64,000 nucleotides of DNA from positions 10,792-74,791 of the forward strand of contig CADBXE010000003.1 in the NCBI GenBank assembly GCA_902798595.1, in the 5' to 3' direction. The notes under the pieces are model-generated. The model was not told where the DNA came from, searched no databases, and saw nothing but the letters and a program-made list of their open reading frames with translations. The DNA is from an uncultured Erysipelotrichaceae bacterium (GTDB lineage Bacteria > Bacillota_I > Bacilli_A > RFN20 > CAG-826). The position numbers were made by a program, and so were the translations under genes. This document shows, in pieces, positions 2,320 through 27,689 of the stretch. Numbering within the stretch: the stretch's first letter is position 1; the number at the start of each line of letters is the position of its first letter.

Positions 2320-2330
2320 ATTTGTATTCC

Positions 2331-6413: not shown

Positions 6414-6580
6414 AGGTTGTTCCGTTCTAATTTAGCACAATATTTATTGATGAAAACACACAATTTACACATTTTAAAAACTGTAAACTCATGATAGGTC
6501 ATTTCAAATATTTGTCTTTAATTGATTTAGGGAACCATATCAGGTTTTTATTAACAAATATAATAAAAGAAAGGAGATTT

Positions 6581-7270
6581 ATGTTTATGAAGCACAAACT
6601 TTTATTAGTTTTACCAATGATGTTCCTTCTTACCGCTTGTGACTTATCAAGCATATTTGGTAACAACGATAATAGTTCAACATCATCTAATAAGAAAGAA
6701 ACACTAGAACAAATGATGAATAAGGAGACCATCGCTCATGATGGTAGTGAGAAAACTCGTGATGAGTTTCTCTCTTTGGCCCCTAATAATCAAACATTAT
6801 CCGCGGAGGCAAGAGGGTACAATTACTGCACAGTTAGTTATTCTGCAGCCTATAACCAAATTAAAGATGAATTAGACAAGATGGGTAATCCAACCTATTA
6901 CATCAAACAATTTAGAGAAGAAGAAACTTATTATTGGGAGCAAGATAAGAAAGGTAACACCTTTGAAATTAACTACACTGATACATCTGATAACTACATC
7001 TATGGGACGGTGGAAAGCTTGGTCAAAACTTCAGAAAGAGAAATTGCTCAAAATATTGGTAAGTTCTATGTCGCTAGTGATAGTTACTATGCAGTGTTCC
7101 GCTATAAAACAAATACCGGCAAAAATACTTGGTACTACAGAAGAGAATTCAAGTGGAACAAAAATGGAGACATTTTAGCCGCTGATATCTTCGCTGGTCT
7201 AGATTACGATGGCTCAGAACAACATGAAAACTGGGCTATGACATTTGCCTATTCCACAAAAACAGCATAA
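6581..7270 (+). CDS. Hypothetical lipoprotein
   Basis: The track ORF starts at 6491, but AAGGAG (6572-6577) precedes the ATG at 6581. The product starts MFMKHKLLLVLPMMFLLTAC (signal peptide + lipobox). Confidence 0.7.
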   Translation: MFMKHKLLLVLPMMFLLTACDLSSIFGNNDNSSTSSNKKETLEQMMNKETIAHDGSEKTRDEFLSLAPNNQTLSAEARGYNYCTVSYSAAYNQIKDELDKMGNPTYYIKQFREEETYYWEQDKKGNTFEINYTDTSDNYIYGTVESLVKTSEREIAQNIGKFYVASDSYYAVFRYKTNTGKNTWYYRREFKWNKNGDILAADIFAGLDYDGSEQHENWAMTFAYSTKTA

Positions 7271-7585: not shown

Positions 7586-10117
7586 ATGAACAAATTTTTC
7601 ACAAAAATCATTGGCGCATCGTTAGCTATCGCCATGATGATTGGTGTTGGCGCTGGAATGAACGCTAATAAAGCGGCAAAAGAAGTGAACGCCGCTGAAT
7701 CGTCAGTTAGTTGGACAGCGACTAGTGGCGGGTTGGGTAGTGGTATTGGTTCCGGGACAATTTCGACAGGATCTTATTCATGGTCATACACCAGAACTTT
7801 AAAAAGTGGTACCAGTTATTCTGGCTGGACAAGCAATTGCATTCAATTAGGCAAGAACGGCGGCGTTGAAAATCTTTCTCTTACTACATCCGCTATCCCT
7901 GGAATAATTAAATCGGTTTCAGTGGAATGCTCTTCATATCAAGGCAAACATAACGTATCAATTACTGTTGGTTCTTCCACATATTTGGCCTCGACGGCAA
8001 CATCAAGCTGGACTACTGTCAGCGCTAAAACAGGTACTGGCACTTCTTCAGGCGCTATTACTATTTCTTTTACAGGTGGTACAAGAGCCTTATACATTAA
8101 GAGTCTGAATGTTGTATACGATACAGCTGTTGCGCCAGAAACCTATTATACCGTCTCTTTTGAGACAAATGGTGCTACGCCAATTCCAGAAGAAATTGTC
8201 GCTGATGACAATAACACTCCGGTTGAAAAACCAACTGATCCAGAAAAAAGAGGCTATGTATTTGGCGGCTGGTATAAAGAAGGAATGACTGAAGAGTACA
8301 ACTTTGATAATCCAGTCGAAGGCAATATGACTTTGTATGCAAAATGGGAAAAAGTAGATGTGGCATCTACATATTCTCCATCTATGTCGAATGGTGATTA
8401 TCGTATTGCTGGTGAAGTAACAGCTATCACTGGTTCAAGTGAGTTTTTCGTTCAATCTGGTAATAATGCGATGCATGTAGGCGGTGACAACTATACTACT
8501 TCGCTTCAGAACGGAAATAGTGTTGATTTATTTGGCACATATGTTGCAAGCAGTACAACTATCGGCAATTTAGCCTATTGTGATAAAACCGCTGAAGACA
8601 CAGATATTGAACAAGCATATTTGTCAAACTTAAACGATGTAACAGAAGCCAATTTATGCAAGTATGTTAGAATCGAAAACATTCAACTCGCATCTGGTTT
8701 TGATGCGAATAGCAAAAAAGCTTCTATTAAAAATAGCGAATTAATTGTTTTCTATAACGCAAAAACAAAAGTGGATAATAATACCTTTGAGCCAAATGAT
8801 TATGCAGCAAACGATTATGTTTCTGTCCATGGCGTTGTTTACAAACACAAAGATACATCCGAACTTGGTTTATATATCACTCATATTGAAAAGCCAGCAC
8901 AATTTGTTGTTACTTTCGATTACAATGATGGCCGTGGTACATATACCACTCAAAATGTTTTAAGTGGTGGTAACGCTCAAGCTCCAGTCGCTCCAACAAA
9001 GCCATCTGATGTTAATTACAATTATTCATTTGCTGGTTGGTATACAGATGAAGCGTGTAATAATGCTTATAACTTTAGTACGGCTGTTGCTTCATCCTTC
9101 CCTCTATATGCAAAATGGGAAAGAGTGCAAAGAGATGCGAGCGAAGTTATTGAAGGCACTTTAAAAACCAATTCATCTTTATCTTATAGTGCTTACACTC
9201 AAACTGGTTTTGGCATAAAAGATACATTAGACCGTGAATTTACGGGTAAAACCGGCACTTCTTATGGCAGTGACTGGACAAAAAATATTTCTACATCCGG
9301 AGTTACGTATGTAGGTAATTCTGCTGGTGACAATGGTGCCATTCAGCTTAGATCATCTAGCAATTCAGGAATTGTTACAACAACTGCTGCTCTTGCGGGT
9401 AACGCCACAAAAGTTACTGTTGCTTGGGAAAGTCATACTGCTGATGGTCGAACATTAAATGTTTACGGCAAGAATACTGCTTATGAGGCACCTGCAGATT
9501 TATATGACGCCAGCAAACAAGGCGAACTACTTGGCACAATCGTTTGTGGCACTTCTACAACCCTTGAAATCACAGGCGATTATGCATATATCGGTTTTAG
9601 ATCTAATGGTAGTGCTATGTATTTGAGTTCTGTTGAAATTCAATGGGGCGAAGATTTAAATTACGATTACACTGACTTGAAAATTAGATTTGCTGCTAAA
9701 GTAAGTGAAGAATTATGGACAAGATTAAATAATGAATCCACAATCACTGGTTATGGTATGTTACTCTCCACAACCGATGCGATTAATAATGAACATATTG
9801 ACACCCATTATGCTTCAGCAAAAGATTATCGTTCTTCTCTAAACGTTAAAAGTGAAGTTGTTAATTTTCCAAATACAAAAGCCACTCCAAATTTATCCGA
9901 AGGTAATTATGGTTGGTCCTTACACAAGAGTATTCCTGAAGCCGACTATACTACAACATTTATTGCAGTGGCATATATTATTACAGAAGATGATGGCGTG
10001 CTCTTCATGGACGAAATCAGAGCTTCTGCTAAGAGTCTTGCCGGTGATTTAATTCAAAATGGAACATATGAAGAAGATGCCTTTGGCGGCTCACTTAAGT
10101 TCTTAGCGGATCGATAG
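7586..10117 (+). CDS. Membrane-anchored surface protein with Listeria-Bacteroides repeats and the shared C-terminal module (paralogue 1, no nuclease domain)
   Basis: 843-aa ORF with an N-terminal TM/signal anchor. Two Flg_new-type repeats (..GYVFGGWYKEGMTEEYNFDNPVEGNMTLYAKWE; ..YSFAGWYTDEACNNAYNFSTAVASSFPLYAKWE). The C-terminal ~330 aa (..WESHTADGRTLNVYGKNTAY..) are homologous to the C-termini of the 10642 and 13150 products. Confidence 0.8.
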   Translation: MNKFFTKIIGASLAIAMMIGVGAGMNANKAAKEVNAAESSVSWTATSGGLGSGIGSGTISTGSYSWSYTRTLKSGTSYSGWTSNCIQLGKNGGVENLSLTTSAIPGIIKSVSVECSSYQGKHNVSITVGSSTYLASTATSSWTTVSAKTGTGTSSGAITISFTGGTRALYIKSLNVVYDTAVAPETYYTVSFETNGATPIPEEIVADDNNTPVEKPTDPEKRGYVFGGWYKEGMTEEYNFDNPVEGNMTLYAKWEKVDVASTYSPSMSNGDYRIAGEVTAITGSSEFFVQSGNNAMHVGGDNYTTSLQNGNSVDLFGTYVASSTTIGNLAYCDKTAEDTDIEQAYLSNLNDVTEANLCKYVRIENIQLASGFDANSKKASIKNSELIVFYNAKTKVDNNTFEPNDYAANDYVSVHGVVYKHKDTSELGLYITHIEKPAQFVVTFDYNDGRGTYTTQNVLSGGNAQAPVAPTKPSDVNYNYSFAGWYTDEACNNAYNFSTAVASSFPLYAKWERVQRDASEVIEGTLKTNSSLSYSAYTQTGFGIKDTLDREFTGKTGTSYGSDWTKNISTSGVTYVGNSAGDNGAIQLRSSSNSGIVTTTAALAGNATKVTVAWESHTADGRTLNVYGKNTAYEAPADLYDASKQGELLGTIVCGTSTTLEITGDYAYIGFRSNGSAMYLSSVEIQWGEDLNYDYTDLKIRFAAKVSEELWTRLNNESTITGYGMLLSTTDAINNEHIDTHYASAKDYRSSLNVKSEVVNFPNTKATPNLSEGNYGWSLHKSIPEADYTTTFIAVAYIITEDDGVLFMDEIRASAKSLAGDLIQNGTYEEDAFGGSLKFLADR

Positions 10118-10131
10118 GAGGGAATTAGAAT

Positions 10132-10251
10132 ATGAAGAAAAAACAATTCGAAAAACCAGAAGCAGAATTAATCAAGTTTGAAGATACAGATATTATTGCT
10201 ACATCTGGTCCTAATGACGGAGAAGATCCTGATAAAGAATGGGATTTCTAA
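10132..10251 (+). CDS. Micro-ORF A, 39-aa acidic peptide (candidate RiPP-type precursor)
   Basis: Hand translation: MKKKQFEKPEAELIKFEDTDIIATSGPNDGEDPDKEWDF. AGGAGGG (10116-10122, overlapping the upstream stop) lies 9 nt before the ATG. A strong terminator follows. Paralogous to micro-ORF B. Below the 60-aa cutoff of the ORF track. Confidence 0.5.
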   Translation: MKKKQFEKPEAELIKFEDTDIIATSGPNDGEDPDKEWDF

Positions 10252-10281
10252 TTCCTGAATTATAATTTACCAATAACGATC

Positions 10282-10310
10282 AAAAGGCGGGTTTTCATCC
10301 GCCTTTTTGT
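10282..10310 (+). terminator. Rho-independent terminator after micro-ORF A
   Basis: AAAGGCGG-loop-CCGCCTTT followed by TTTTT. Confidence 0.8.
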
Positions 10311-10394
10311 TTTAACAACTATCTCACTTACTATTTTTTGATTGATTCATCAGCGTTAACAACATATCATTAATTCTTGGAAGTAAACTATAGT

Positions 10395-10535
10395 ATGAAA
10401 ACAAATTCAGAAAATAGAAAAACATTTATAAAACCAGAATTAGAAATCATCTTATTTGAAGGTGAATTAGCTACTGGTGATCTTATTATCAATTCAAGTT
10501 TTGGTAATCCAGACGGTGATGATGGGGATATCTAA
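10395..10535 (+). CDS. Micro-ORF B, 46-aa acidic peptide (paralogue of micro-ORF A)
   Basis: Hand translation: MKTNSENRKTFIKPELEIILFEGELATGDLIINSSFGNPDGDDGDI. Possible TTGATT-N17-TATCAT promoter (10342-10370) and a weak GGAAG RBS. Has its own terminator. Confidence 0.45.
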   Translation: MKTNSENRKTFIKPELEIILFEGELATGDLIINSSFGNPDGDDGDI

Positions 10536-10550
10536 TAATAGATAAATCCA

Positions 10551-10576
10551 GGTGGGGCAAGCGCTCCACCTTTTTA
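10551..10576 (+). terminator. Rho-independent terminator after micro-ORF B
   Basis: GGTGGGGC-AAGC-GCTCCACC stem followed by TTTTT. Confidence 0.8.
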
Positions 10577-10588
10577 TATGATGTGCAC

Positions 10589-10616
10589 TTGCAAAAATAT
10601 AAATATAAACTATATT
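10589..10616 (+). promoter_or_regulatory. Putative promoter for the 10642 nuclease gene
   Basis: TTGCAA-N16-TATATT, about 25 nt upstream of the ATG. Confidence 0.4.
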
Positions 10617-10641
10617 ATTAATTGTTCCCACTTAGTGATAT

Positions 10642-13071
10642 ATGAAAATGAATACAAGAAAACAATTAATTAAAATAGGCGCTTTAGCAGCGGCTTTCTC
10701 TTTAACTGCTGGTGTATTTATCAATTTAGGTAGAAAAGCCTTTGAGGTCAACGCATACAGCATTGGTAATTTAGCAAAGGAAATTGATCTAAATGATTGC
10801 ACAGAACAAGAGATAAGAGATTATTATTCTAACCTTAATTCTTTAGATACATCAGAAAGACAAGGTACAAACCTTCTCATACAACTAAAAGATATCTTAT
10901 CAACTAACCAAGTGTATTTTAGTTATGACAGTGGCGATAAGATTTGGCAAATGTATGAAATAACTGACCGTGATTGGGAGAAGTCTCCTGCTAGTTCGAC
11001 TGTTTATGGTACATATGACCCTGTTACCAATACTATTTCTAATTACCAATATGGTGAAAGTAAAAGCAACAGTAAGAACAACCCATATATCCACGCTTTA
11101 TATATCAATAGGGACATTGACAATCAAACAACTGCGTGGGATGACCACAATCAAGATGCTTGGGGCATAAACCAAGAACATATTTGGGCCAAGTCACATG
11201 GCTTTGATACCAAAGGTAGCGATTCCAGCGGTGGCGCTAGAGGTGACCCAATGCACTTATGGGCAGGAAACGGCTGGGCCAACAATGTTCATAGCAACAA
11301 TTTCTTTGGCTTTGTTGACATAGATAGGGAATACACCGATTCAGGTACTAAATACCAAACCGCTTATGGTAATTTGTCTGGTTTTTCAAGAACTGTAGGT
11401 GGCAACGAAACCGTTTTTGAACCACAAGATTGTGATAAAGGCGATATTGCTAGAGCCATATTCTATATGGTTGCTAGATATAATAACTATGAAAACAAAA
11501 CCGAAGGTATTGATGGCAATAATCCAAACCTTATTTTGTTAAATGATTTATCAGAAAACACTAGAACTGGTACATCCGCTTTTGATGACCCATATGGTAT
11601 GGGCTTATTAAGCGATTTATTAGCCTGGAATAAGCTTGATCCAGTTGATGAATACGAAGTACATAGAAACAATCTTCTTTATAAAAACTACACAAAGAAT
11701 AGAAACCCATTCATAGATTTCCCTAATTGGGCTGACGCTATTTGGGGAACAGCGGATATAGATGGTACAAACTATAGTTCTACTGTAGTTGGCTACGCAT
11801 CTCCAACCACCGATCCAATTGGTTCTGTTACTGGTCCTTTAGATATCTCTAACGAAACAATGGAAATCATTGTTGGTGATACAGCGGAAATTTCCGCTAA
11901 AAATGCTTTAGATGTCATTACTTGGACAGTAGAAAACGACTCAATCGTGAGTTTAAATAAAACAACTTCCATTAACAAAGAAAAGCTTACTATTACCGCT
12001 TTAAGCACTGGTACAACAACTATTACCGCCACTTGCAATGGCGTTGATGTTTCTTGCACAGTGACTGTTAGAGAACCAACAGCAAAAGAAGCGATTGAAA
12101 GAACAGATACCGTTACCTCTTTAGCGTATCGCTATACAAGAGAAGAAGGTAAAGCCCAAACTACAGATACTTTAGATAAGACCTTTACTGAAGTAAGTGG
12201 TTCTTCATATGCCGAATGGACAAATAGTGGTGCATCTGATGTTACTTACAAAGGGACAACTGCTGGAAGCAACAACTCAATTACGCTTAAATCAACTGAT
12301 CACTCTGGCATTGTTACTACTGCTAACCTTAATGGTGCGAATGCACTCAACGTTACAGTGACATGGGAATCACACACCGCCGATGGCCGTACAATTGATA
12401 TTTATGGTAAAAACACCGCTTATACTGAGCCAGGAGATTTATACGCTAATGCTACAAGAGGTACAAAACTTGGATCTATTGTTTATGGCGAAAGCACAAG
12501 TCTAGCTATTACTAGCGACTATAAATACATTGGTATCAGAGCCAACAGCAATACATTGTATGCTTCTTCTATCGAAATAGGATGGAGTGCTACTCCTCCA
12601 AAATTCTCCTATTCTGATGCGTCTATTAGATTTACTGGCTTACTTAGCCAACAACTATGGAATGATTTAGATACTGAAAACTATGTTATTGAAGGCTTTG
12701 GTGTCATGATTGCCACTGATGATGTGATTAATGAAACCGCTAATATTAAAGATTCCTATGAATCCGCTATTTTATCTACGTTAAATCCTGATGTCACTGA
12801 AAATATAGTGGATTACTTTGTTTCAAAAGATACTAAGGCCACACCAACCATAAAAGGTGATGACTATTACTGGAATCTAAAATACAACATTGCCGAAGAA
12901 AACTATGCAACAACGTATGTTGCTGTAGCATATATTAAGACATCAACAAGCTATGTCTTCTTTAAACAAACAAGATATAGCGTTAAGTCATTAGCGGAAG
13001 ATTACATTGCTAATAGGGGCTATGATTCAGCAACCGCTAATGGTTCATTAGCAAACTTAGCAAATATCTAA
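10642..13071 (+). CDS. Membrane-anchored extracellular endonuclease-I family protein (paralogue 2)
   Basis: 809-aa ORF with an N-terminal TM anchor. Endonuclease-I motifs NQEHIWAKSHG, DPMHLWAGN, FEPQDCDKGDIARAIFYM and NRNPFIDFPNWA. A Big_2-like Ig domain precedes the shared C-terminal module (..WESHTADGRTIDIYGKNTAY..ANGSLANLANI). Confidence 0.85.
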   Translation: MKMNTRKQLIKIGALAAAFSLTAGVFINLGRKAFEVNAYSIGNLAKEIDLNDCTEQEIRDYYSNLNSLDTSERQGTNLLIQLKDILSTNQVYFSYDSGDKIWQMYEITDRDWEKSPASSTVYGTYDPVTNTISNYQYGESKSNSKNNPYIHALYINRDIDNQTTAWDDHNQDAWGINQEHIWAKSHGFDTKGSDSSGGARGDPMHLWAGNGWANNVHSNNFFGFVDIDREYTDSGTKYQTAYGNLSGFSRTVGGNETVFEPQDCDKGDIARAIFYMVARYNNYENKTEGIDGNNPNLILLNDLSENTRTGTSAFDDPYGMGLLSDLLAWNKLDPVDEYEVHRNNLLYKNYTKNRNPFIDFPNWADAIWGTADIDGTNYSSTVVGYASPTTDPIGSVTGPLDISNETMEIIVGDTAEISAKNALDVITWTVENDSIVSLNKTTSINKEKLTITALSTGTTTITATCNGVDVSCTVTVREPTAKEAIERTDTVTSLAYRYTREEGKAQTTDTLDKTFTEVSGSSYAEWTNSGASDVTYKGTTAGSNNSITLKSTDHSGIVTTANLNGANALNVTVTWESHTADGRTIDIYGKNTAYTEPGDLYANATRGTKLGSIVYGESTSLAITSDYKYIGIRANSNTLYASSIEIGWSATPPKFSYSDASIRFTGLLSQQLWNDLDTENYVIEGFGVMIATDDVINETANIKDSYESAILSTLNPDVTENIVDYFVSKDTKATPTIKGDDYYWNLKYNIAEENYATTYVAVAYIKTSTSYVFFKQTRYSVKSLAEDYIANRGYDSATANGSLANLANI

Positions 13072-13149: not shown

Positions 13150-15708
13150 ATGAGAATAAAAAAACATATCCCAACAATAATTGCTTTAACCGCTGTTTTA
13201 ACTTTAGGCGCCAGTTTATACGTTAATTTTAAAAAAGCTCCTGTTGAAGCTGATGCCACTCAAGTAAATGAGAATTTTGCCCCATATACTTATAGTGGTA
13301 CTTATTACAGCGATCACAATATTGATTTTAATGCTGGCGATGGCATGAATGGTGCACTTAGAACAAAACTAAGAACCGAACTTAAACCAAAAGGTTTTGT
13401 AGAGTATAGCAGTGGATTATCAGACGAACTACAAGAAGCTGACGAAGATCCAAATAATACAGATAACATGGTGATGTTCTACACCCGTAACTCAATCACA
13501 AAAACTCCCGCTAGCAATGGTGGCATGGTTTGGAATAGAGAACACGTCTGGCCAAAGAATAAATCAAATGACAACTGGGGTACAACCAAAGGTGGTACAG
13601 ACATTCTTCACCTTAGACCAACATATGAGACACCAAACTCAACAAGAAGCAATCACCCATATGGTTATGCTCATAATGGCACAAAAAAGTCACACCTTAA
13701 CATGGATTATGGCTGGTTAGATGGCGATATCTTTGAACCTTTGGATTGCGTTAAAGGTGATGCCGCAAGAATCATTATGTATGTTTGGACAGTCTATGAT
13801 GGTTATTCGGGATATAATCCTTTATCAATCACTAGTGTTTTTGAAAGTTTTGACACTCTTCTTGAATGGCACACAATGGACAAGCCAGATGCCTTAGAAG
13901 GCCATAGAAATGATTATGTGCAAAACAGCACAGTACAAAAGAATAGAAATCCATTTGTTGATCATCCTGAATTAGCATGGAAGATTTTTGGTGATGCAAA
14001 TGGATTAAGCGCATCTGTTAAGAACGCCTGTATGGCAGCTTATCCAGATGGCAGTAATCCAATAGATCCAACCGGTATTACATTAAACAAAACAACTGCT
14101 TCTGTGGAAGTAGGAAAAACAACACAATTAACCGCTACATTGGAGCCATATGGTGCCTCAGGCAACATCACTTGGTCATCAAGCAATACTACTGTTGCCA
14201 CTGTTAATAACAATGGCTTAGTTACTGGTAAAGCAGTAGGTGAGTCCACAATTACTGCAACATGTGGTACCTTTAGTGCTTCTTGTGTAGTTACAGTCGC
14301 AGAAACTGTAAATATCTATGGCACATTAGAAAACCCATTAACAGTGTCTGAGGCTAGACAATTGATTGACGATGTTAACGGTGGCTACACAGCTGAAAAA
14401 ATGTACGTAAAAGGTACAGTGTCTTCTGGCTCGTACAATTCACAATATAGCAACTTTAATGATCTTTGGTTGCAAAGCGAAGATGGTGAAACCGCTAATT
14501 ATTTTGATTTATATCATGCTGAGTTAGATGACTCTGTTCCTGCTAAATACACTAATCCAACTGAATTAGAAGGCAAAGAAGTTATAGCCTATGGCTACGG
14601 CAAGAAATATAACTCTACTTATGAACTTGCTCCTCAAAACAATAACGTTAATAAGCCAGTTATTCTTTCGGTAAAAGATCCTAATCCAATTGAAAAGACC
14701 GCAAAAGAATTAATCGAAGAAGAAACTACTTCTGCAACATTAGCGTATCGGTACACTAAAGAAGGGAATGGTAGTAGTTCAGTTACTGATGCATTAACAA
14801 GAGATGTTACTGGAGTTGAGAGCGGTTCCACATCATATATAGATTGGACACATACTAATTCAACAAGCGCTATTACATACAAAGGACAAAGTGCTGGTAA
14901 CTACGATTCTATTCAAATCAGAAGTGATAAAAGTAATTCTGGTGTCGTTGTTTCTGCTAATACGAACTCTTCAAAAGTAAGTTCTGTTACAGTTGCCTGG
15001 AACACTAATACTTCCAATGGCCGCACATTGAACGTATACGGAAAGAATACCGCATATACTTCACCAACTGATTTATATGGTAATAATCAAGGTACTTTGC
15101 TTGGTACTATCGTTAAAGGTACTAGCACAAGTCTAGCCATTACTGGTGATTATCAATATATTGGACTCAGATCAAATTCTGGTGCAATGTATCTGGAAGA
15201 AATCGATATTCAATGGGGTGGTGCTAGCGCCGCTGTATTTGAATACTCTGATGTTTCGATTAGATTCACTGGCTCACTTAGCCAAGACTTATGGAATGAT
15301 TTAGATACCGAAAACCATGTTATTGAAGGTTTTGGTGTCATGATTACAGCAGTGTCTTCTTACGTAAATGGCACTAGTAAAATTAAAGAACAATATCAAT
15401 CAGCGGTTATTTCAACCGATAATCCAGATGTCACTGAAGACATAGTGAATTACTTTGTGCCTAAAGAAACTAAGGCAACACCTACCGCAAAGGGTAATGA
15501 TTATTATTGGAACTTGAAATACAACATCTCTGAAACTGACTTTAAGACAATCTATGTTGCCGCAGCGTATATTAAAACCGCCACTGAATATGTCTTCTTC
15601 AATCAAGCAAGATATTCTGTAAAAACACTAGCAGCGGATTATATCAATGAAAGAGACTATAATCCAACAACCGCTAATGGTTCATTAGCAAACTTAGCAA
15701 ATCTATAA
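13150..15708 (+). CDS. Membrane-anchored extracellular endonuclease-I family protein (paralogue 3)
   Basis: 852-aa ORF with a TM anchor. Motifs NREHVWPKN, DILHLRPT, FEPLDCVKGDAARIIMYV and NRNPFVDHPELA. Contains a Big_2-like domain (ITLNKTTASVEVGKTTQLTA..) and the shared C-terminal module ending ANGSLANLANL. Confidence 0.85.
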   Translation: MRIKKHIPTIIALTAVLTLGASLYVNFKKAPVEADATQVNENFAPYTYSGTYYSDHNIDFNAGDGMNGALRTKLRTELKPKGFVEYSSGLSDELQEADEDPNNTDNMVMFYTRNSITKTPASNGGMVWNREHVWPKNKSNDNWGTTKGGTDILHLRPTYETPNSTRSNHPYGYAHNGTKKSHLNMDYGWLDGDIFEPLDCVKGDAARIIMYVWTVYDGYSGYNPLSITSVFESFDTLLEWHTMDKPDALEGHRNDYVQNSTVQKNRNPFVDHPELAWKIFGDANGLSASVKNACMAAYPDGSNPIDPTGITLNKTTASVEVGKTTQLTATLEPYGASGNITWSSSNTTVATVNNNGLVTGKAVGESTITATCGTFSASCVVTVAETVNIYGTLENPLTVSEARQLIDDVNGGYTAEKMYVKGTVSSGSYNSQYSNFNDLWLQSEDGETANYFDLYHAELDDSVPAKYTNPTELEGKEVIAYGYGKKYNSTYELAPQNNNVNKPVILSVKDPNPIEKTAKELIEEETTSATLAYRYTKEGNGSSSVTDALTRDVTGVESGSTSYIDWTHTNSTSAITYKGQSAGNYDSIQIRSDKSNSGVVVSANTNSSKVSSVTVAWNTNTSNGRTLNVYGKNTAYTSPTDLYGNNQGTLLGTIVKGTSTSLAITGDYQYIGLRSNSGAMYLEEIDIQWGGASAAVFEYSDVSIRFTGSLSQDLWNDLDTENHVIEGFGVMITAVSSYVNGTSKIKEQYQSAVISTDNPDVTEDIVNYFVPKETKATPTAKGNDYYWNLKYNISETDFKTIYVAAAYIKTATEYVFFNQARYSVKTLAADYINERDYNPTTANGSLANLANL

Positions 15709-15827: not shown

Positions 15828-17708
15828 ATGATTAAAACAAGAAAAATGAAGACTTATTATCTAAAAATTAGAGAGAAATTTATAGAGCCGCTTAGGAACG
15901 GCATAAAGAAACATGAGTATCGTTTAGCTTCTCCAGAAAGACGCTCTATTAAGATTGGAGACAATCTTGTTTTGATATCAAACCAGGATAAGAAAAACTA
16001 TGTAAGAACAACCGTAACGGGAATTAATATTTATAAATCGTGGCGGGAGGCATTAGAAAACTATTGGGAAGAAGATTTCTCTGGGCTTTTTGATACTCTT
16101 GATATTGCTCTTACTGAATGCAATAAATTCTATTCTCGAGATGATGTTGATGAATACGGGATTATTGTATTTGATGTAAAGCCTGCGACCATCGATTACG
16201 GCAGCGCTTCTGTTCTACTGGATACAAACGTCATCGTTAGAAGAGAAAGTTACAACAACAGTTCTTCCGAAATAGCTAAATTATTTAATTACTTCAATAA
16301 AAAGAAAATCAGGACATTTGTTCATCAGAAAAGCAAAAACGAATTGGAAAAATACGCAAATCCAAATTACAAGAAATCTATCATAGATAAGTTAAATGCA
16401 TACGAAACCTTCCCAAACTATGTAGTTCGTCTTGATAATACTTTCAACGATATTGTTTCTCACTTTTCAAATGATGATAATAGTCAAGTTGATAATGCCC
16501 TTTTAGCGGAAGTATATTGTGGGAACGTGCAACTACTTTTGACGGATGACCGTCTAATGCTTTTAAAAGCAGAACAATTGTATATTAGAGAAAAAGTATT
16601 ATCTTCTATTGAACTTCTTGAAAAATACAAGGAACTCGATCCTAAAAATGTAAAGTATGACATTTTGAATGTTACACTCAAATCTTTTGCAGAAGTTGAC
16701 TTAGACGATTCATTTTTTGATACCTTGAAATATGATTACAACTTCGGTAATAACGAATTTGTTAATTGGTATAAGAGAAAGTCTGAAAAAAATGAAATGG
16801 CATACACTTTTTATGATGGCGACATCCTTAAAGGATTCTTATATTTAAAAGTTGAGGACAACGAAACGTATGACGACATTACTCCTAAGATGCCTAGGAG
16901 AAAAAGATTGAAGGTCGGAACGTTTAAAATCAATAGCACTGGCTTCAGACTTGGTGAACGCTTTTTCAAAATTATTTTTGATAACGCTCTTCTTCTAAAA
17001 GTCGATGAAATCTATGTGACACTTTTTGAAAACAAACGCAAAGAAATTGCAAAACTTAAATCTGATTTCGAAAAGTGGGGCTTTACCAAATTTGGATATA
17101 AAACAAATGGCGAAGCTGTTCTGGTGAAAGAAATAGCAAATCCTGTAATTGGTGATAATCCAAAACAATATTTTCCTGCTTTTAAGCCATCTGCTAAAAA
17201 ACTGTTTTTGCCGATTTTGCCTGAATACCATACAAGCCTATTTCCAGATAGCCATTTGAGAAATGAAAATTTAAGTTTCTTAAAAAGCAATCGAGCTCAT
17301 CAATATGCTTTGGAAAAGATATATCTGACAGGAGCAAACACAGATGGCATAAAACCAGGTGATGTTGTACTTATTTATCGCATTGGTGAAGATATGTTTA
17401 AAAGGTATTCCTCCACTCTCACCGGAGCTGCAATTGTTCAAGAGATTATTAAAACTAAGAATGTTGATGAATGCATAGATATATGTAGCAATCGTTCTAT
17501 CTTCAGTGAAAAAGAGATTAGAACGTTTTATGATAAATATCCAACAGTAGTTAAATTGTTATATAGAACTTCATTTGATCATAAAATTCTTCTAGATTAT
17601 TTATGGCAAAAGGGCATAATCGAACAAAACTGTGGCCCAAGATCATTTCAGCCTTTAAGCAACGACTATTTCAGTTTATTATATAAAAAAGGAACTGGAG
17701 AAGAGTGA
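15828..17708 (+). CDS. Multidomain ASCH - PIN - GNAT-like - ASCH-like protein
   Basis: 626-aa ORF. aa ~8-118 are ASCH-like (IEPLRNGIKKHEYRL..GDNLVL). aa ~128-255 are PIN-like (VLLDTNVIV ... LLLTDDRLM). aa ~280-436 are GNAT-like (..LKVGTFKINSTGFRLGERFFK..WGF). aa ~455-615 form a second ASCH/PUA-like region resembling the downstream 125-aa protein. Domain calls come from motif reading only. Confidence 0.55.
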   Translation: MIKTRKMKTYYLKIREKFIEPLRNGIKKHEYRLASPERRSIKIGDNLVLISNQDKKNYVRTTVTGINIYKSWREALENYWEEDFSGLFDTLDIALTECNKFYSRDDVDEYGIIVFDVKPATIDYGSASVLLDTNVIVRRESYNNSSSEIAKLFNYFNKKKIRTFVHQKSKNELEKYANPNYKKSIIDKLNAYETFPNYVVRLDNTFNDIVSHFSNDDNSQVDNALLAEVYCGNVQLLLTDDRLMLLKAEQLYIREKVLSSIELLEKYKELDPKNVKYDILNVTLKSFAEVDLDDSFFDTLKYDYNFGNNEFVNWYKRKSEKNEMAYTFYDGDILKGFLYLKVEDNETYDDITPKMPRRKRLKVGTFKINSTGFRLGERFFKIIFDNALLLKVDEIYVTLFENKRKEIAKLKSDFEKWGFTKFGYKTNGEAVLVKEIANPVIGDNPKQYFPAFKPSAKKLFLPILPEYHTSLFPDSHLRNENLSFLKSNRAHQYALEKIYLTGANTDGIKPGDVVLIYRIGEDMFKRYSSTLTGAAIVQEIIKTKNVDECIDICSNRSIFSEKEIRTFYDKYPTVVKLLYRTSFDHKILLDYLWQKGIIEQNCGPRSFQPLSNDYFSLLYKKGTGEE

Positions 17709-17709
17709 G

Positions 17710-18087
17710 ATGAAACGAAAAATATTGATTTCGGTTAATCCTGAGCATGTTGAAAACATTATTTCTGGCATAAAGAAGTATGAATATCGTCGCCATGTTG
17801 CCAAAAAGGATATTTCATCTATCATCATCTACGAAACAACACCGATTAAGCGTGTAGTCGCGGAAGCGGAAATCGAAGCCATTCTTTCTTATACCCCCGA
17901 TGAACTTTGGGAAATAACAAAGAATGAATCGGGTATTACAAGAGCTTTCTTTGATAAATATTTCAAAGGCAAAGAAATTGCACATGCTTACCGTATTGGC
18001 AAAGTTAAAGTCTTTAAAGAAAAGAAACTGCTTCAAGACTTTGGCGTTAGATGTGCACCTCAATCATTCGTCTACATCAATTACTAA
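17710..18087 (+). CDS. ASCH domain protein
   Basis: 125-aa ORF starting 1 nt after the upstream TGA. ISVNPEHVENIISGIKKYEYRR ... YETTPIKRVVAEAEI is typical of small ASCH (PUA-like) proteins. Confidence 0.7.
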   Translation: MKRKILISVNPEHVENIISGIKKYEYRRHVAKKDISSIIIYETTPIKRVVAEAEIEAILSYTPDELWEITKNESGITRAFFDKYFKGKEIAHAYRIGKVKVFKEKKLLQDFGVRCAPQSFVYINY

Positions 18088-18145: not shown

Positions 18146-18865
18146 ATGGTTAACTTTAAAATTGAAATCGCTAATACAGTATTTGAAATTAATGCTTTTA
18201 ATGAGTCCACTAAAAGGTATTGTGGGGATTTTTTAAGCGATAAAGAATCTGATTATGTTATTGATATGACTAAGGATGATTTAGAAAACGAAAAGCATAT
18301 CAGTGAAGATGGTAAAGTGTACGCGAATGAAGAGATATCAGCATTATATCGTAAGATAGCCAATATCTTTATAGAAAAGGATATTATGATCGCTCACGGT
18401 TCTTCTTTTAAAGTTGATAACTGTGGTTTTCTAGTGACTGCGAGAAGTGGAGTGGGTAAATCCACCCATGTTAATTTATTAAGAGAGTTATTAGGTAATG
18501 AATTTAGTTATATTAATGACGATAAGCCGTTATTAGAAGTTAATGATAATAACTGTATGCTTTATTCTTCACCATGGAATGGTAAAGAAAGAAGAGGTAA
18601 TAATACCTATGCTCCTTTAAAGGCTATTATCTTCCTTAATAGGGGTACTTCTAATACATATAGAAAGATTGAAAATAATAGTGATATCTATTTTAGATTA
18701 ATGACTCAAGTCTATTTACCATTAGATAAATCTAAAAGAGAAAAAGCTTTAACATTGATTGATATATTATTAAAGAGAATTAACTTCTATGAGATTAATG
18801 TTAATACTGATATATCAAGTGCGGTTATGACTTATGAAAGGATTATTAAAAATGAAATTAAATGA
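18146..18865 (+). CDS. HPr-kinase-like (HprK-related) P-loop kinase
   Basis: 239-aa ORF. HGSSFKVDNCGFLVTARSGVGKSTH resembles the HprK/P C-terminal domain Walker-A region. No RBS; TATAAT lies 6 nt upstream of the ATG. Confidence 0.55.
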   Translation: MVNFKIEIANTVFEINAFNESTKRYCGDFLSDKESDYVIDMTKDDLENEKHISEDGKVYANEEISALYRKIANIFIEKDIMIAHGSSFKVDNCGFLVTARSGVGKSTHVNLLRELLGNEFSYINDDKPLLEVNDNNCMLYSSPWNGKERRGNNTYAPLKAIIFLNRGTSNTYRKIENNSDIYFRLMTQVYLPLDKSKREKALTLIDILLKRINFYEINVNTDISSAVMTYERIIKNEIK

Positions 18866-19124
18866 AAACTTTTTAATCCATAGTTCTGATAATGGTGAAA
18901 TCTTAATCCCAGTGGGAGAAGAAACTAAAAAGTTCCATGGTGTGGTTAAACTTAATAACACCGGTAGTGAAATCGTTCACTTATTAGAAAATAACGATAT
19001 GTCATTAGAGGATCTCTTTGAACACTTCTATAAGAGCTGTCCTAATGATGATAAAGAAGTAATTAAACAAGGAGTTAGTGAGTTTATTAAAAAACTCTAT
19101 GAAATCAATGCCATCGTTGAATAA
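18834..19124 (+). CDS. PqqD-family peptide chaperone (RiPP recognition element)
   Basis: 90-96 aa (ATG at 18834 or 18852, both overlapping the kinase gene). ..LNNTGSEIVHLLENNDMSLEDLFEHFYK...VSEFIKKLYEINAI follows the PqqD/RRE pattern. Confidence 0.6.
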   Translation: MKGLLKMKLNENFLIHSSDNGEILIPVGEETKKFHGVVKLNNTGSEIVHLLENNDMSLEDLFEHFYKSCPNDDKEVIKQGVSEFIKKLYEINAIVE

Positions 19125-19539
19125 GTTTGAAGACGTTCTTAATAAAGAAGGAGAACTAATATTCACTAATGTTGGTTACTCTATGTATCCGCTCATCAAA
19201 CAAAGAGAGGATGTTTTAAGAATTGTTAAAAGCGATAACTATAAGAAAGGCGATATTGTTTTATATAAGTCTGAAATAGACCACTACGTGTTACATAGAA
19301 TCTTAAAGATTAAGAAAGATGTAGTTATCCTTGCGGGTGACTATAACTACTTTAAAGACAAACCTATTACAAAAGATAAGATTTTAGGCGTTTTAAGCAC
19401 AATTACTAAGAAAGATGGTAAAATAATCGACCTATCTAAGGATAAAAGGGCTAGAAGGTTCTTTTATACGAATTTCTTTTATATCAAAGCATTCTTCCAA
19501 ATGGTTGGGAAGGTATTACATTTAAGAAAAGTAAAATAA
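19078..19539 (+). CDS. S24/S26-family (signal-peptidase-I-like) serine peptidase
   Basis: ~145-153 aa. The likely ATG is at 19099 or 19108, overlapping the PqqD stop. Contains GYSMYPLI (GxSMxP catalytic Ser motif) and KGDIVLY..HRI. Confidence 0.55.
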   Translation: MSLLKNSMKSMPSLNKFEDVLNKEGELIFTNVGYSMYPLIKQREDVLRIVKSDNYKKGDIVLYKSEIDHYVLHRILKIKKDVVILAGDYNYFKDKPITKDKILGVLSTITKKDGKIIDLSKDKRARRFFYTNFFYIKAFFQMVGKVLHLRKVK

Positions 19540-19611
19540 TACTTCATCGGCAAAAAACAAAAAACTTTGTATAACTATTGTAAATCTTGCCGAATATAGT
19601 ATCATTAATGT

Positions 19612-20514
19612 ATGAATAAATTCATAACGGTCAAAGAAGCGGCAAATAAATGGAATGTTTCGGAAAGAAGCGTTCGTAATTACTGTGTCTTAGGAAGAGT
19701 TCCTGATGCAGTTTTTGAAAATGGATGCTGGCTCATACCAGAAACCGCTAAAAAGCCAATTAGGCTTAACGAAAAAGAAAACAAAAACCATCTTCTTGAG
19801 AGATTAAGGGAAGAAAAGAAGCACCAAATCAGTGGTGGAATATATCACAAACTTCAAATCGATTTAACTTATAACTCAAATCATATTGAAGGTAGCGAAT
19901 TAACGCACGATCAAACTAGATATATTTTCGAAACAAGAACCATTGGCTTAGAAAGCACAAATACATCAGTTAAAGTTGATGATGTGATTGAAACCATCAA
20001 TCACTTTTCTGCAATTGATAGAGTTATTGATTTTGCTAACTATGAACTTAGCGAATCATTTATCAAAGAACTGCATAAAATTTTAAAAACTGGGACATCT
20101 GATTCAAGACTTTCTTGGTTTGCGGTTGGCGAATATAAAAAAAGAGCGAATGAAGTAGGTGGCATAGCTACGACATCTCCTCAACAAGTTAATGATGAAA
20201 TGAAAAAACTCCTCAGCGATTATAATCAAAAGGACAAACATTCTTTTGAAGAAATAGTGGAATTTCATGTTAAATTTGAGAGAATCCATCCTTTCCAAGA
20301 TGGCAATGGTAGAGTTGGACGCCTCATTATTCTTAAAGAGTGTTTAAAAAACAACATCGTCCCTTTTGTTATTCTTGATAATAAAAAAATGTTTTACTAT
20401 CGCGGTCTCAAGAATTGGAACCAAGAACGCGGATGGTTATTAGATACTTGCTTGGATGGGCAAAATACAGTAAAAGCGTACCTAGATTATTTTGGAATAG
20501 TGTATCGTAATTAA
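19612..20514 (+). CDS. Fic-family protein with N-terminal HTH
   Basis: 300-aa ORF. An excisionase/MerR-like HTH (ITVKEAANKWNVSERSVRNYC) is followed by the canonical Fic motif HPFQDGNGRVGR. Confidence 0.9.
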   Translation: MNKFITVKEAANKWNVSERSVRNYCVLGRVPDAVFENGCWLIPETAKKPIRLNEKENKNHLLERLREEKKHQISGGIYHKLQIDLTYNSNHIEGSELTHDQTRYIFETRTIGLESTNTSVKVDDVIETINHFSAIDRVIDFANYELSESFIKELHKILKTGTSDSRLSWFAVGEYKKRANEVGGIATTSPQQVNDEMKKLLSDYNQKDKHSFEEIVEFHVKFERIHPFQDGNGRVGRLIILKECLKNNIVPFVILDNKKMFYYRGLKNWNQERGWLLDTCLDGQNTVKAYLDYFGIVYRN

Positions 20515-20524
20515 GGAAGCAAAG

Positions 20525-22165
20525 ATGAGAAACAAAGAAACACTAAGTTTTATTAACAAAAACATTAAAGGGAGTAAGAAGAAAGTCTTTATCCTTTCTT
20601 TAATTCAAACCTTATTAGGTGTTTTAACTGTTGGTTTCTCTTTCATGCTGAAGTTTGTTATCAATGCGATTGAAGATAAGAACAATGAATTATTAATTAG
20701 ATACGTCATTATCATTGCCTCAATTGCAGTCTTGCTTATCGCTTTACAAATCTTCTATCGCTTATATTACGAAGTTAGTTATATCGATATTGAAAATAGA
20801 TTAAAAAATAACTTATTTAAAACAATCTTGAATAAAGATTATCAAGATGTTAAAAACACTCATGATGAAGAATGGATCCATAGATTAACAAGTGATACCG
20901 CAGTAGTGGCATCCTCAATCCTATCAATCTTACCTTCATTATGTAGAATGGTTATCCAATTAGTTTTAGCCTTAGCCCTTATTATCTATTTATTCCCAGC
21001 GTTCGGTTTATCTTTATTGCCATTTATCGCTTTAGTAATTCTAATCACTTACTTTATGCGCAAACGTTTAAAAGCGTATCATCATTTAGCCCAAGAAAAA
21101 GATGGTAAAGCTAAAGTGTTCCTTTCCGAATCTCTTCAAGGTTTAGCAATTGTTCATAGCTTTGTTAAAGAAGATGTCTTTTCTAAAAAGAATGAACAAA
21201 ACTTAGAGGAATATAAGAAAGCGAGATTAAAAAGAAATACATTTAATGTCTTATGCTCTATTGGCTTTATAGTGGTCTACTATACTTTCTATATCTTAGC
21301 CATTATCTTCTGTGGACAAAAGATTATTAATGGTGCGATGACCATTGGCTTCTTAAGCGCGATTGTCGCGTTACTTTCACAGTTAACAGGTCCACTTGGA
21401 AATATCACCTCTATCATTCCTAAGTACTATAGTTTATTAGCGAGTGGTGAACGTTTAAGAATGGAAAATAGCGAGGACGTGGATTATTTATCTAAGAGTG
21501 AAATTGATAATTTCTATAACAATGGATTTAAAAAACTATCCATTAATAAGGTTTGTTATTCCTATTTAGATAAATATGGTAATAAGGTCCAAGCCCTTAA
21601 TAACTTCTCGCTTGTTATTAATAAAAACGAAAAGGTTTTAATTAAAGGCCATTCTGGTGGTGGCAAGTCCACTTTATTTAAACTAATACTTTCTTTATTA
21701 ACCCCAGAAAGTGGTGAAATTAAGATTAACGAACAACCACTTAATAAGAAATATGAAAAACTCTTCGCTTATGTCCCTCAAGATAACTTATTAATGGAGG
21801 GCACAATTAAGGAAGTAGTGACACTATTCGATAATGAACCGAATAATGAACTATTTAACAAAGCTTTAGAAATCAGTGATGCCTCTAACTTTGTTAATGC
21901 CTTAGTTAATAAAGAAGAAACATACCTTAATGAAAAAGGTAGTGGTCTTTCCTTAGGGGAAATGGAAAGAATCGCTATTGCTAGAGCCATTTACAGTGGT
22001 TCTCCAATCTTGCTATTAGATGAATGTTCAGCGTCCCTTGATGCCTCTAGTGAAAAGACAGTGATGTCTAATATTTTAAATATGAACAATAAGACCATTA
22101 TCTTAATTTCACATCATAAATATGATGAGAAGTTATTCGATAAGGTTATCGATCTTGGTGAATAA
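20525..22165 (+). CDS. ABC exporter, fused permease/ATPase
   Basis: 546-aa ORF. N-terminal 6-TM exporter domain, Walker A GHSGGGKST, signature LSLGEMERIAIARA, Walker B ILLLDE. Starts 10 nt after the fic stop. Confidence 0.85.
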   Translation: MRNKETLSFINKNIKGSKKKVFILSLIQTLLGVLTVGFSFMLKFVINAIEDKNNELLIRYVIIIASIAVLLIALQIFYRLYYEVSYIDIENRLKNNLFKTILNKDYQDVKNTHDEEWIHRLTSDTAVVASSILSILPSLCRMVIQLVLALALIIYLFPAFGLSLLPFIALVILITYFMRKRLKAYHHLAQEKDGKAKVFLSESLQGLAIVHSFVKEDVFSKKNEQNLEEYKKARLKRNTFNVLCSIGFIVVYYTFYILAIIFCGQKIINGAMTIGFLSAIVALLSQLTGPLGNITSIIPKYYSLLASGERLRMENSEDVDYLSKSEIDNFYNNGFKKLSINKVCYSYLDKYGNKVQALNNFSLVINKNEKVLIKGHSGGGKSTLFKLILSLLTPESGEIKINEQPLNKKYEKLFAYVPQDNLLMEGTIKEVVTLFDNEPNNELFNKALEISDASNFVNALVNKEETYLNEKGSGLSLGEMERIAIARAIYSGSPILLLDECSASLDASSEKTVMSNILNMNNKTIILISHHKYDEKLFDKVIDLGE

Positions 22166-22166
22166 G

Positions 22167-23285
22167 ATGAATAAAGAGAATTACGCGAATAACATTAATA
22201 AGTATGTGCGACTTATCGCAGCGTATCTAAATAATAAGATACTTAACGAAAGTATTGATGATAATCTTCTCTCTTTTTGTATCAAGATGTCCAAACATCA
22301 TTCCTTAACTGCGTTACTTTATAAGGCTATCGTAGAAACGCATAGTAAAGTAAATCCAGAGTTATTAAAGAAGCTAGAGCAGCATTATTACGCTAACTTA
22401 AGAAAGCACGCTTTATTTGAACAAGAAAGAAATGATTTGTTTAAGTATTTAGATGATAACAAGATTGATTATTTACCTTTAAAAGGCTTAATTGTTAAAG
22501 ACTATTATCCTGATCCATTTACTAGAGAATTTGCGGATAACGATATTCTTTTTAAGGGCAAAGATGAAGTGATAAAGAAGTTCTTCGTCGATAAAGACTA
22601 TGAGGTTGAACTATATAAAAAGAGCAATCATGATGTCTATTTAAAGAAGCCCTTCTATAACTTTGAAATGCACCGCGAATTATTCATGGAAAGAGAAGAC
22701 TTAACCGAGTTTGTTAAGTACTTTAAAAACTATTTAGATAAAGCCCCTATTAAAAAGAAGAAAGAACATTATTTAAGCAATGAAGATTTCTATATCTATT
22801 TCACCGCTCATTCATATAAACACTATAGTGCCTCTGGATGTGGAATTAGAACGCTCGTGGATTATTATTTATACTTAAGAAATAACAAACTAGATTTTAA
22901 ATACATCAATAAAGAATTAGAGAAGTTAAATCTCTTAGATTTCTCTAATCAAATGATCAATCTTTCAAATAAAGTATTTAATGAAGAAACATTAGATAAT
23001 GATGAATTAGAAACACTGCTATTTATCGCTAGCAGTGGTACTTATGGTACTTTAGAACACAGTGTCACTAAAGGCATTAAGAAAAAAGGAAAGTTTGGTT
23101 ATACGATGTCTCGCATCTTTCCACCTTATTCCTTCTATAAAACCACTTATCCTTGGGCGTATCACGTTGTCATCCTTATTCCAGTTGCGTGGACAATCCG
23201 CTTATTCAAAGTTTTGTTTACGAACCCTAAAAAAGCGGTGACAGAACTAAAGATGATTAAAGATTCTAAAGAAGAAAAAGAATAG
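22167..23285 (+). CDS. Uncharacterised nucleotidyltransferase family protein (PF14907-like)
   Basis: 372 aa from the ATG at 22167, 1 nt after the ABC stop. YLPLKGLIVKDYYPDPFTREFADNDILF matches the LKG...Y...R..D.D pattern of this family. Confidence 0.5.
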   Translation: MNKENYANNINKYVRLIAAYLNNKILNESIDDNLLSFCIKMSKHHSLTALLYKAIVETHSKVNPELLKKLEQHYYANLRKHALFEQERNDLFKYLDDNKIDYLPLKGLIVKDYYPDPFTREFADNDILFKGKDEVIKKFFVDKDYEVELYKKSNHDVYLKKPFYNFEMHRELFMEREDLTEFVKYFKNYLDKAPIKKKKEHYLSNEDFYIYFTAHSYKHYSASGCGIRTLVDYYLYLRNNKLDFKYINKELEKLNLLDFSNQMINLSNKVFNEETLDNDELETLLFIASSGTYGTLEHSVTKGIKKKGKFGYTMSRIFPPYSFYKTTYPWAYHVVILIPVAWTIRLFKVLFTNPKKAVTELKMIKDSKEEKE

Positions 23286-23333: not shown

Positions 23334-23348
23334 TTCTATAATGAAGTC

Positions 23349-27677: not shown

Positions 27678-27689
27678 GGAGACAGAATT

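Follow-up and report, generated by a model that had tools for sequence, protein, structure and literature searches.

Two paralogous micro-ORFs as probable precursors of a divergent LPP-type peptide system in an uncultured Erysipelotrichaceae bacterium

A 64,000-nucleotide stretch of DNA from an uncultured Erysipelotrichaceae bacterium (contig CADBXE010000003.1; G+C content 36%), hereafter called the window, contains two short open reading frames, ORF-A and ORF-B, in an array of large surface-protein genes. A first-pass annotation, made from the sequence alone, had proposed them as the missing substrates of a PqqD/kinase/peptidase/exporter cassette situated about 8 kb downstream. We here found that both are real genes under selection, that the enzymes of the cassette are homologous to the machinery for synthesis of linear polyphosphorylated peptides (LPPs), and that the array is syntenic with the cassette in related loci. 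The best explanation, in which we place considerable confidence based on these comparisons, is that ORF-A and ORF-B encode the precursors of a divergent, FxxP-type LPP system, that is, a pathway for a ribosomally made, post-translationally modified peptide (RiPP) encoded at positions 18146–23285. The positions of all features are listed in Table 1.

The translations of the two ORFs were exactly as originally quoted. Upon a six-frame tblastn search of the whole window, ORF-A and ORF-B were mutual best non-self matches, with E-values of 6e-4 to 1e-3 and 42% of 38 aligned columns identical, in agreement with the paralogy that had been claimed, and no third copy was found in the 64 kb. Scans of both peptides with Pfam and NCBIfam at E ≤ 1 revealed no family, while a scan of positions 9900–10800 with Rfam gave sub-threshold chance matches only. 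Searching a collection of 5.8 billion proteins with a profile of the two peptides yielded seven micro-proteins of 39–52 aa, and a second search, performed after the alignment had been enlarged with members from related loci, yielded 772 proteins at E ≤ 1, all of 37–74 aa, with 120 of them at E ≤ 2e-11. None of the 772 is named or has a Pfam domain. Among species-representative genomes, the family was found only in an uncultured Erysipelotrichaceae rumen metagenome-assembled genome (MAG) and an uncultured ‘Bacillales’ MAG. It is a previously unannotated family, with precursors that escape both current annotation and mining by motif.

Conservation across the family showed that ORF-A and ORF-B are coding genes under purifying selection, for which a check across orthologues had been advised. 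The reading frame and the N-terminal half were conserved in 137 distinct peptide sequences, the family having at least this many members, with the tail being variable. Between ORF-A and its orthologue in locus L003, 12.5 of 20.7 synonymous sites differed versus 6.5 of 96.3 non-synonymous sites (pN/pS 0.11), and across the family the leader half had a dN/dS of 0.23 and the tail one of 0.38. Orthologues of ORF-B were also found (P0002, and positions 5561–5713 of L010).

The expression signals ascribed to the two genes were for the most part recovered. The ribosome-binding site (RBS) of ORF-A indeed lies over the TAG stop codon of the preceding 843-aa gene, with 14 nt separating that stop from the ORF-A ATG, and GGAG-type boxes occur at the equivalent junction in L001, L002 and L003. 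Both of the GC-stem/T-run terminators were detected as well, in a scan of the region that gave three sites versus 0.4 ± 0.6 expected in shuffled sequence, and terminator-like hairpins are found 3′ of the micro-ORF also in L001, L002 and L003. The promoter-like boxes attributed to ORF-B were present, but this match to the sigma-70 consensus is not above chance, with six promoter-like matches in the region against 4.6 ± 1.9 expected. Which start codon is used by ORF-B-type genes is ambiguous, as gene callers begin at an upstream TTG stretch (as for P0001 and P0160); in ORF-B, a TTG at position 10377 would give a protein of 52 aa. The in-frame residues 5′ of the ORF-B ATG (10377–10394) read (TTG)-E-V-N-Y-S, with a similar E-T-N-H-N in the L010 counterpart (5540–5560).

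With regards to peptide anatomy, the family displays a conserved leader, a variable core and multiple copies per locus. The N-terminal half has the features of a leader bound by a RiPP recognition element (RRE), following the consensus K-K-x-F-x-K-P-E-[LA]-E-I-I-x-F. Its aromatic residue was invariably Phe (136 of 136 peptides), and after it came x-x-P-x and then Leu (117 peptides) or Ala (15 peptides); counted literally, FxxP was present in 135 of 137 peptides and [YW]xxP in one. The FxxPxL motif pointed out for ORF-B is exact, and ORF-A instead has FxxPxA. An invariant Ser follows 16 residues after the Pro, or 20 residues where a four-residue insert of the GELAT type is present, with I-I-[T/V/A]-x directly before it and, in 98 of 136 peptides, Gly directly after it. 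The tails thereafter comprise 12–37 residues, made up of 24% Gly, 15% Asp, 11% Pro and 8% Trp with nearly no Cys, having a mean net charge of −2.9 and with 71 of them ending in WW. No signal peptide was found in family members. By analogy with the F-E-T|A-Q-S site of the LPP precursor LppA, we infer that the leader is cut off after I-I-[T/V/A] and that the kinase acts on the invariant Ser, the residue just before the tail that had been suggested as a kinase target and that we likewise regard as the likeliest one. ORF-A would accordingly be divided into a leader M1–A23 (with F6-x-x-P9 and I21-I22-A23) and a core, TSGPNDGEDPDKEWDF, with the invariant Ser being Ser25, whereas in ORF-B it would be Ser34, with the predicted core NSSFGNPDGDDGDI.

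LPPs were recently defined by Popov et al. (Nat Commun 2026, PMC13381572) as products of cyclase-less lppA-K-B-S-D-N clusters, coding for an HprK-like kinase, a discrete RRE, a SipW-like leader peptidase, an MsbA-like pump and an NTP transferase. For the Paenibacillus lpp cluster it was shown experimentally that LppK polyphosphorylates core Ser3; furthermore, LppS, with its catalytic S29, H68 and D93 verified by mutation, requires LppB to present the leader in order to cut after T-1, with the leader Tyr, hydrogen-bonded to D70 of LppB, being the main recognition determinant (PMC13381572).

The cassette of the window has the same gene set and order, K-B-S-[Fic]-D-N, on the forward strand, interrupted solely by a Fic/DOC gene that probably is an insertion. 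The structural model of its kinase (AlphaFold2, mean predicted local distance difference test score (pLDDT) 90.4) gave, in a Foldseek search of the PDB, 39 top matches that were all HPr kinase/phosphatase or PEPCK structures (probability 1.00, TM-scores 0.3–0.55). Aligning the RRE with a profile of 15 LppB sequences using hhalign gave 55 aligned columns at E = 3e-4, in which N33 was conserved and D70 aligned with Gly. The peptidase had 31% identity over 108 aa to LppS (WP_029196374.1; BLASTP, E = 2e-16), whereby S29, H68 and D93 of LppS aligned with the Ser of GYSMYP, the His of VLHR and the Asp of FKDK, respectively, and it matched TIGR02228 at E = 6.7e-12 with 45.6 bits, under the cut-off of 51.85 bits. 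As for the exporter, the best NCBIfam match was MsbA_rel. Overlaps between kinase and RRE genes (32 nt, 18834–18865), RRE and peptidase genes (26–47 nt, 19078/19099–19124) and exporter and PF14907 genes (44 nt, 22122–22165) suggest translational coupling of the cassette enzymes. Neither an asparagine synthetase-like cyclase nor a transglutaminase-like B2 protein was found among ORFs of at least 80 aa in the window or in the related loci. Sequence-only PDB searches with the kinase, the peptidase, the RRE and the RRE profile gave only chance-level matches (VHL, haemagglutinin, thioredoxin) and failed to retrieve the entries of LppB or PbaB1.

The peptidase also belongs to the same type I signal peptidase (SpI) family as SipW of the Bacillus subtilis tapA-sipW-tasA operon, with which it shares the Ser and His motifs (G-x-S-M-x-P, H-R and G-D-x-N) and a gene position beside dedicated substrates. 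In contrast to SipW-type enzymes, however, it has no hydrophobic or transmembrane segment and is thus a soluble enzyme, which, judging from its homology to LppS, would act in the cytoplasm on an RRE-presented leader and not on Sec signal peptides.

We compared the gene order in cassette loci having kinases 70–100% identical to that of the window (the window itself, also denoted L019, together with L010, L011, L015, L022, L024/25 and L028–31). The window kinase has 770 homologues, including over 120 clusters at ≥69% identity. Wherever a cassette locus included enough sequence upstream, members of the micro-ORF family were found there on the same strand, in one to three or more copies, at distances ranging from 57 nt to 11.5 kb. 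The shortest distance, in L022 and L023, places a family member 57 nt upstream of the kinase start, which is the classic position of a precursor gene. In the window, the cassette begins 7.9 kb away from the micro-ORFs, much as originally estimated, with two genes for ASCH-domain proteins located between array and cassette. These are missing from this junction in L010, L011, L015, L022 and L028–31 and hence, as judged from the compared gene orders, are a lineage-specific insertion that lies outside the system. Inserts at the junction and in the slot between the peptidase (S) and exporter (D) genes vary between loci, including DUF6088/AbiEii genes in L024 (8381–9987) and the ASCH and Fic genes of the window, with the S/D slot holding an AAA_14/DUF4143 gene in L030 (14198–15526) and Fic in L028/29 while being empty, like the junction, in L022. 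Both places resemble hot spots for insertion within a biosynthetic cluster. Since the flanking partners persist despite these differing inserts, selection on the linkage between array and cassette can be argued, and with this adjacency being kept in diverged relatives, in addition to the copy 57 nt upstream of the kinase in L022, the micro-ORFs very probably are the missing substrates of the cassette. We also noted a pair of IS605-type transposase genes just 3′ of the cassette in L022 (15347–17199), and, directly 3′ of the PF14907 gene in the window, a gene for an 804-aa fused ABC ATPase and FtsX permease (23331–25745) that does not have this position in L022, L024 or L028 and probably lies outside of the conserved cassette.

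The similarities to LPP systems extend from the gene set and order, the lack of cyclase and B2 and the alignment of the LppS triad to the precursors, which in both cases come in one to three or more copies, with an aromatic-xxP-x-[L/V/A] leader, a conserved Ser close to where leader and core meet, and a core of variable, low-complexity sequence in which Gly, Pro and Asn/Asp abound. The differences are, however, clear. The leader of LppA, YxxPxVLxHQxIxFETxxS, carries a Tyr where the family has Phe, and where LppB has D70, the RRE of the window has an aligned Gly; this equivalence is tentative because the alignment is shallow, but the pairing of leader Phe with RRE Gly may be a co-variation, as would fit a pocket specific for Phe. 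The family has the spacing P-x11-I-I-[TVA]-x-S, or one that is four residues longer, and the cores, with their 12–37 residues after the Ser, are acidic and usually end in Trp, in contrast to LppA cores of about 45 residues that are Gly/Asn-rich and basic. Moreover, whereas LPP genes are found in capsule loci of Bacillales, the genes studied here belong to surface-protein/nuclease arrays of uncultured rumen or gut Erysipelotrichaceae-like bacteria, with precursor genes attached 3′ of surface-protein genes, up to 11.5 kb from the lppK-like gene and for some members without a cassette within 10 kb. As the cassette is of LPP type and the LPP precursor motif is absent, the system would work like an LPP system without being a plain member of that class.

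Several observations weigh against assigning the micro-ORFs to the LPP-type cassette. The residue replaced by Phe is the main determinant for recognition by LppB, the LPP motif P-x9-F-x-[T/A] was found in none of the 137 peptides, and the family profile matched that of LppA only weakly (hhalign, E = 1.8e-3 over 21 columns, covering solely the aromatic-xxP stretch). The match between RRE and LppB was furthermore based upon shallow profiles (Neff 1.2 for the window type). In the window, the proposed precursor genes are separated from the kinase gene by 7.6–7.9 kb, with two large genes, the two ASCH genes and terminators intervening. At least five distinct family members (L001, L005, L027, L032 and L035) have no cassette within about 10 kb, such that the co-occurrence held in all assessable cassette loci but not for these orphans, whose constant partner is instead a C-terminal domain of surface proteins, for which the LPP model offers no explanation. 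The sample that contained the full array with cassette of L028 also contained an orphan module, L036.

The published LPP survey covered cultured Bacillales, with precursors searched for within 2–5 kb using a Tyr/Phe-x-[T/A] motif (PMC13381572), and FxxP precursors would therefore have been missed. Neither Erysipelotrich nor rumen entries are listed in its supplementary files, and the leader strings found here are likewise missing from them.

Based upon homology to the Paenibacillus lpp system, a mechanism can be proposed. The leader would dock as a beta-strand into the PqqD-type RRE through the knobs of its F-x-x-P motif, whereupon the HprK-like kinase would add one or several phosphates to Ser25 of ORF-A or Ser34 of ORF-B. 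The RRE would then offer the junction, I-I-[T/V/A]|x-S, to the SpI-like serine peptidase, a soluble enzyme, for removal of the leader, the PF14907 enzyme may further decorate the phosphate, and the MsbA-like ABC transporter would export the short acidic core rich in Gly, Pro, Asp and Trp.

The overlap between the RBS of ORF-A and the surface-protein stop codon had been noted earlier but was treated as incidental, whereas a coupling to the 3′ ends of surface-protein genes turned out to be the most constant association of the family. Among 30 distinct peptides with genomic context, 26 began 12–22 nt 3′ of the stop codon of a large gene, corresponding to 26 of 28 assessable cases; of the remaining four, two were solo second copies behind another micro-ORF (ORF-B and L010 5561–5713) and two were located at contig edges. 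In all 26 coupled cases the upstream protein carried at its end one and the same domain (C-dom; about 150 aa), as detected with a profile hidden Markov model (HMM) at E-values from 1e-40 to 1e-60. The 843-aa protein, with ORF-A attached 3′ of its gene, is such a protein (E = 7.5e-52), and orthologous pairs of C-dom gene and micro-ORF were seen in L002, L003, L005, L006 and others. N-terminal parts of C-dom proteins vary (Flg_new, Big_2 or Endonuclease_1), with the carriers being surface proteins of 550–1230 aa (including those of L002, L003, L005, L006, L010, L022 and L028) that terminate in ...NGSL-x-x-LA-x. Within 1.84 billion proteins, C-dom was found in 425 representative clusters, at the extreme C-terminus in essentially all full-length matches, and in the window it was confined to the three array proteins (9665–10114, 12619–13068 and 15256–15705). 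Comparing its profile with PDB and Pfam gave nothing significant, the best match being a C-terminal domain protein of the type IX secretion system at E = 0.09, and an AlphaFold2 model based on the three window paralogues had a pLDDT of 47. This gene arrangement suggests that the precursor genes are the last cistrons of predicted surface-protein operons, with the peptide being made together with, and perhaps for, the surface proteins; the coupling may simply ensure co-expression, or the exported phosphopeptide may act on or with C-dom.

A second shared module of about 170 aa (9116–9660 in the 843-aa gene; VTV-W-ESHTADGRT…YGKNTAY) precedes C-dom in all three array proteins, with modelling suggesting, at low confidence, beta-sandwiches. 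The orphan pairs of C-dom gene and micro-ORF (L001, L005/L027, L032 and L035) sit among unrelated genes, in modules of three genes coding, always in this order, for a protein of 240–262 aa without Pfam domain (L002 1882–2631, L005 7386–8174, L027 7434–8180 and L035 1818–2540), an Flg_new/C-dom protein of about 595 aa, and the micro-protein. The 259-aa protein of the window (6491–7270) had no BLASTP match at 1e-3 to these 240–262-aa proteins.

The constant C-dom association gives rise to the strongest alternative, namely that the micro-proteins mainly are partners of the surface proteins behind which they are encoded, for instance as chaperones or escorts in the cytoplasm, or as subunits donating a strand to C-dom, with the proximity to the cassette being secondary. 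Coupling in 26 of 28 cases across all lineages would agree with this notion, as would the orphan pairs, the strictly C-terminal position and similarly narrow distribution of C-dom, and the strand-prone leader. However, the peptides have no signal peptide while the presumed partners are secreted, the two solo copies stand apart from any C-dom gene, and many C-dom genes have no micro-ORF, including those for the 809- and 852-aa proteins of the window. Nor would this model account for the leader of aromatic-xxP type, the invariance of the Ser, the variability of the cores and the fact that adjacency to an LPP-type cassette is conserved, and we therefore consider this alternative unlikely as a full account, although the two models are not mutually exclusive. 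In a speculative extension that we regard as doubtful, an exported, polyphosphorylated and possibly further decorated acidic peptide would serve as dedicated ligand or anchor for the C-dom of the surface proteins. If true, the LPP product would resemble a peptide-based teichoic-acid analogue, tethering or organising surface nucleases, Flg_new and Big_2 proteins, which would give a first function for LPPs and a new mode of surface-protein display in uncultured Bacillota.

The possibility that ORF-A and ORF-B are lasso peptide precursors, with a cyclase and B2 protein encoded elsewhere in the genome and a macrolactam formed between Gly1 and Asp7 or Asp9, follows from the lasso-like core originally read into ORF-A, and we find it very improbable. 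The leader does resemble the lasso motif [Y/W]xxPx[L/V], in ORF-A Thr is found at −2, Gly at 1 and Asp at 7 and 9, and HprK, PqqD and PF14907 genes are typical accessories of lasso clusters in Bacillota, with lasso enzymes also encoded by more than half of the LPP hosts. Clusters of the paeninodin type (padeA-K-C-B1-B2-D, and that of pseudomycoidin with PsmN) share with the window an HprK-like Ser kinase, a discrete PqqD-type RRE (B1), a PF14907 nucleotidyltransferase, an ABC exporter and an RRE-bound aromatic-xxP leader. In contrast to these, the window and all related loci lack macrolactam synthetase and B2 cysteine protease, with the leader peptidase being an SpI-type serine enzyme homologous to LppS, the hallmark of the cyclase-less LPP pathway; the leaders are WxxP there and FxxP here; and paeninodin is phosphorylated at a C-terminal Ser, whereas the window family ends in Trp, Phe, Asn, Asp or Ile. 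Nor do the cores have a consistent ring acceptor, as, out of 136 peptides, 47 had Asp or Glu at positions 7–9, 66 had Thr at −2, and 25 had the full core geometry with a tail of at least six residues, with the ORF-A tail past Asp9 comprising just five residues. The lasso-core reading was thus rejected, with only ORF-A by itself being lasso-like.

Another idea, to which we assign a similarly slight probability, is that the peptides, being acidic, mimic DNA and inhibit the surface Endonuclease_1 proteins encoded next to them, or confer immunity to these. The strongly acidic tails and the location of a micro-ORF just upstream of an Endonuclease_1 gene in many loci would fit with this. The coupled upstream genes, however, mostly encode Flg_new or Big_2 proteins and not nucleases, the orphan pairs have no nearby nuclease, a terminator separates ORF-B from the nuclease gene, and the non-acidic leader is the most conserved part, whereby also this candidate was rejected. 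That the ORFs would be chance spacer ORFs or non-coding terminator or attenuator elements, as their shortness, their omission by the 60-aa filter and the flanking hairpins might imply, has a negligible probability, being refuted by hundreds of homologues with conserved frame and a strong excess of synonymous change, together with an RBS for each gene and the lack of Rfam matches.

If the LPP-type reading of the cassette and the micro-ORFs is right, LPP-type machinery would be common in uncultured rumen and gut Erysipelotrichaceae-like bacteria, as indicated by the more than 120 kinase clusters and 772 precursor matches. FxxP would then constitute a third leader code, accompanied in the RRE by a corresponding loss of the Asp that binds Tyr, thereby offering a natural test of the leader-discrimination model, and the tie to C-dom would provide a concrete, testable clue linking LPPs to the cell surface, about which the authors of the LPP study had speculated from capsule-locus neighbourhoods (PMC13381572).

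Table 1. Positions of the micro-ORFs, the cassette genes and neighbouring features in the window
Feature	Position	Strand	Size	Remarks
ORF-A	10132..10251	+	39 aa	ATG start; putative LPP-type precursor
ORF-B	10395..10535	+	46 aa	ATG start; putative LPP-type precursor with four-residue leader insert (GELAT type)
Shine-Dalgarno sequence of ORF-A, AGGAGG	10116–10121	+		Overlaps TAG stop of 843-aa gene; read from sequence
Intrinsic terminator after 843-aa gene and ORF-A bicistron	10282–10307	+		11-bp stem with 5 G-C pairs, T-run
Weak sigma-70-like promoter candidate for ORF-B	10342–10370	+		TTGATT-17-TATCAT; 9/12 match
Intrinsic terminator 3′ of ORF-B	10550–10571	+		9-bp stem with 6 G-C pairs, T-run
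lppK-like HprK-family kinase	18146..18865	+	239 aa	Pfam Hpr_kinase_C E = 1.3e-3, sub-threshold
lppB-like discrete RRE, PqqD family	18834..19124	+	96 or 90 aa	PF05402, 30.8 bits versus cut-off of 23.4
lppS-like soluble SpI/SipW-type serine leader peptidase	19099..19539	+	146 aa	GTG at 19078 would give 153 aa
Fic/DOC gene	19612..20514	+		Pfam Fic E = 4e-21; variable slot between lppS- and lppD-like genes
lppD-like MsbA-type ABC exporter	20525..22165	+	546 aa	No peptidase domain; ABC_membrane E = 9e-33, ABC_tran E = 8.5e-26
lppN-like PF14907 nucleotidyltransferase	22122..23285	+	387 aa	PF14907 E = 1.1e-41
Surface protein with Flg_new repeats	7586..10117	+	843 aa	Signal peptide; Pfam E = 1.7e-27; shared C-terminal region of about 330 aa
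Surface Endonuclease_1/Big_2 protein	10642..13071	+	809 aa	Same C-terminal region; no micro-ORF 3′ of gene
Surface Endonuclease_1/Big_2 protein	13150..15708	+	852 aa	Same C-terminal region
Two ASCH-domain genes	15828..18087	+	626 and 125 aa	Pfam; between array and cassette

Two further groups of genes in the window should be mentioned. Two adjacent radical-SAM genes, one HemN-like and the other of a generic type without clear family, are located beside genes for a CotH-kinase-domain protein and an AraC regulator (1066–3236 on the reverse strand, 3453–5132 and 5559–6413), and this group could be another cluster. A pair coding for a HigB-like toxin and a helix-turn-helix antitoxin was found at 27402–27986.

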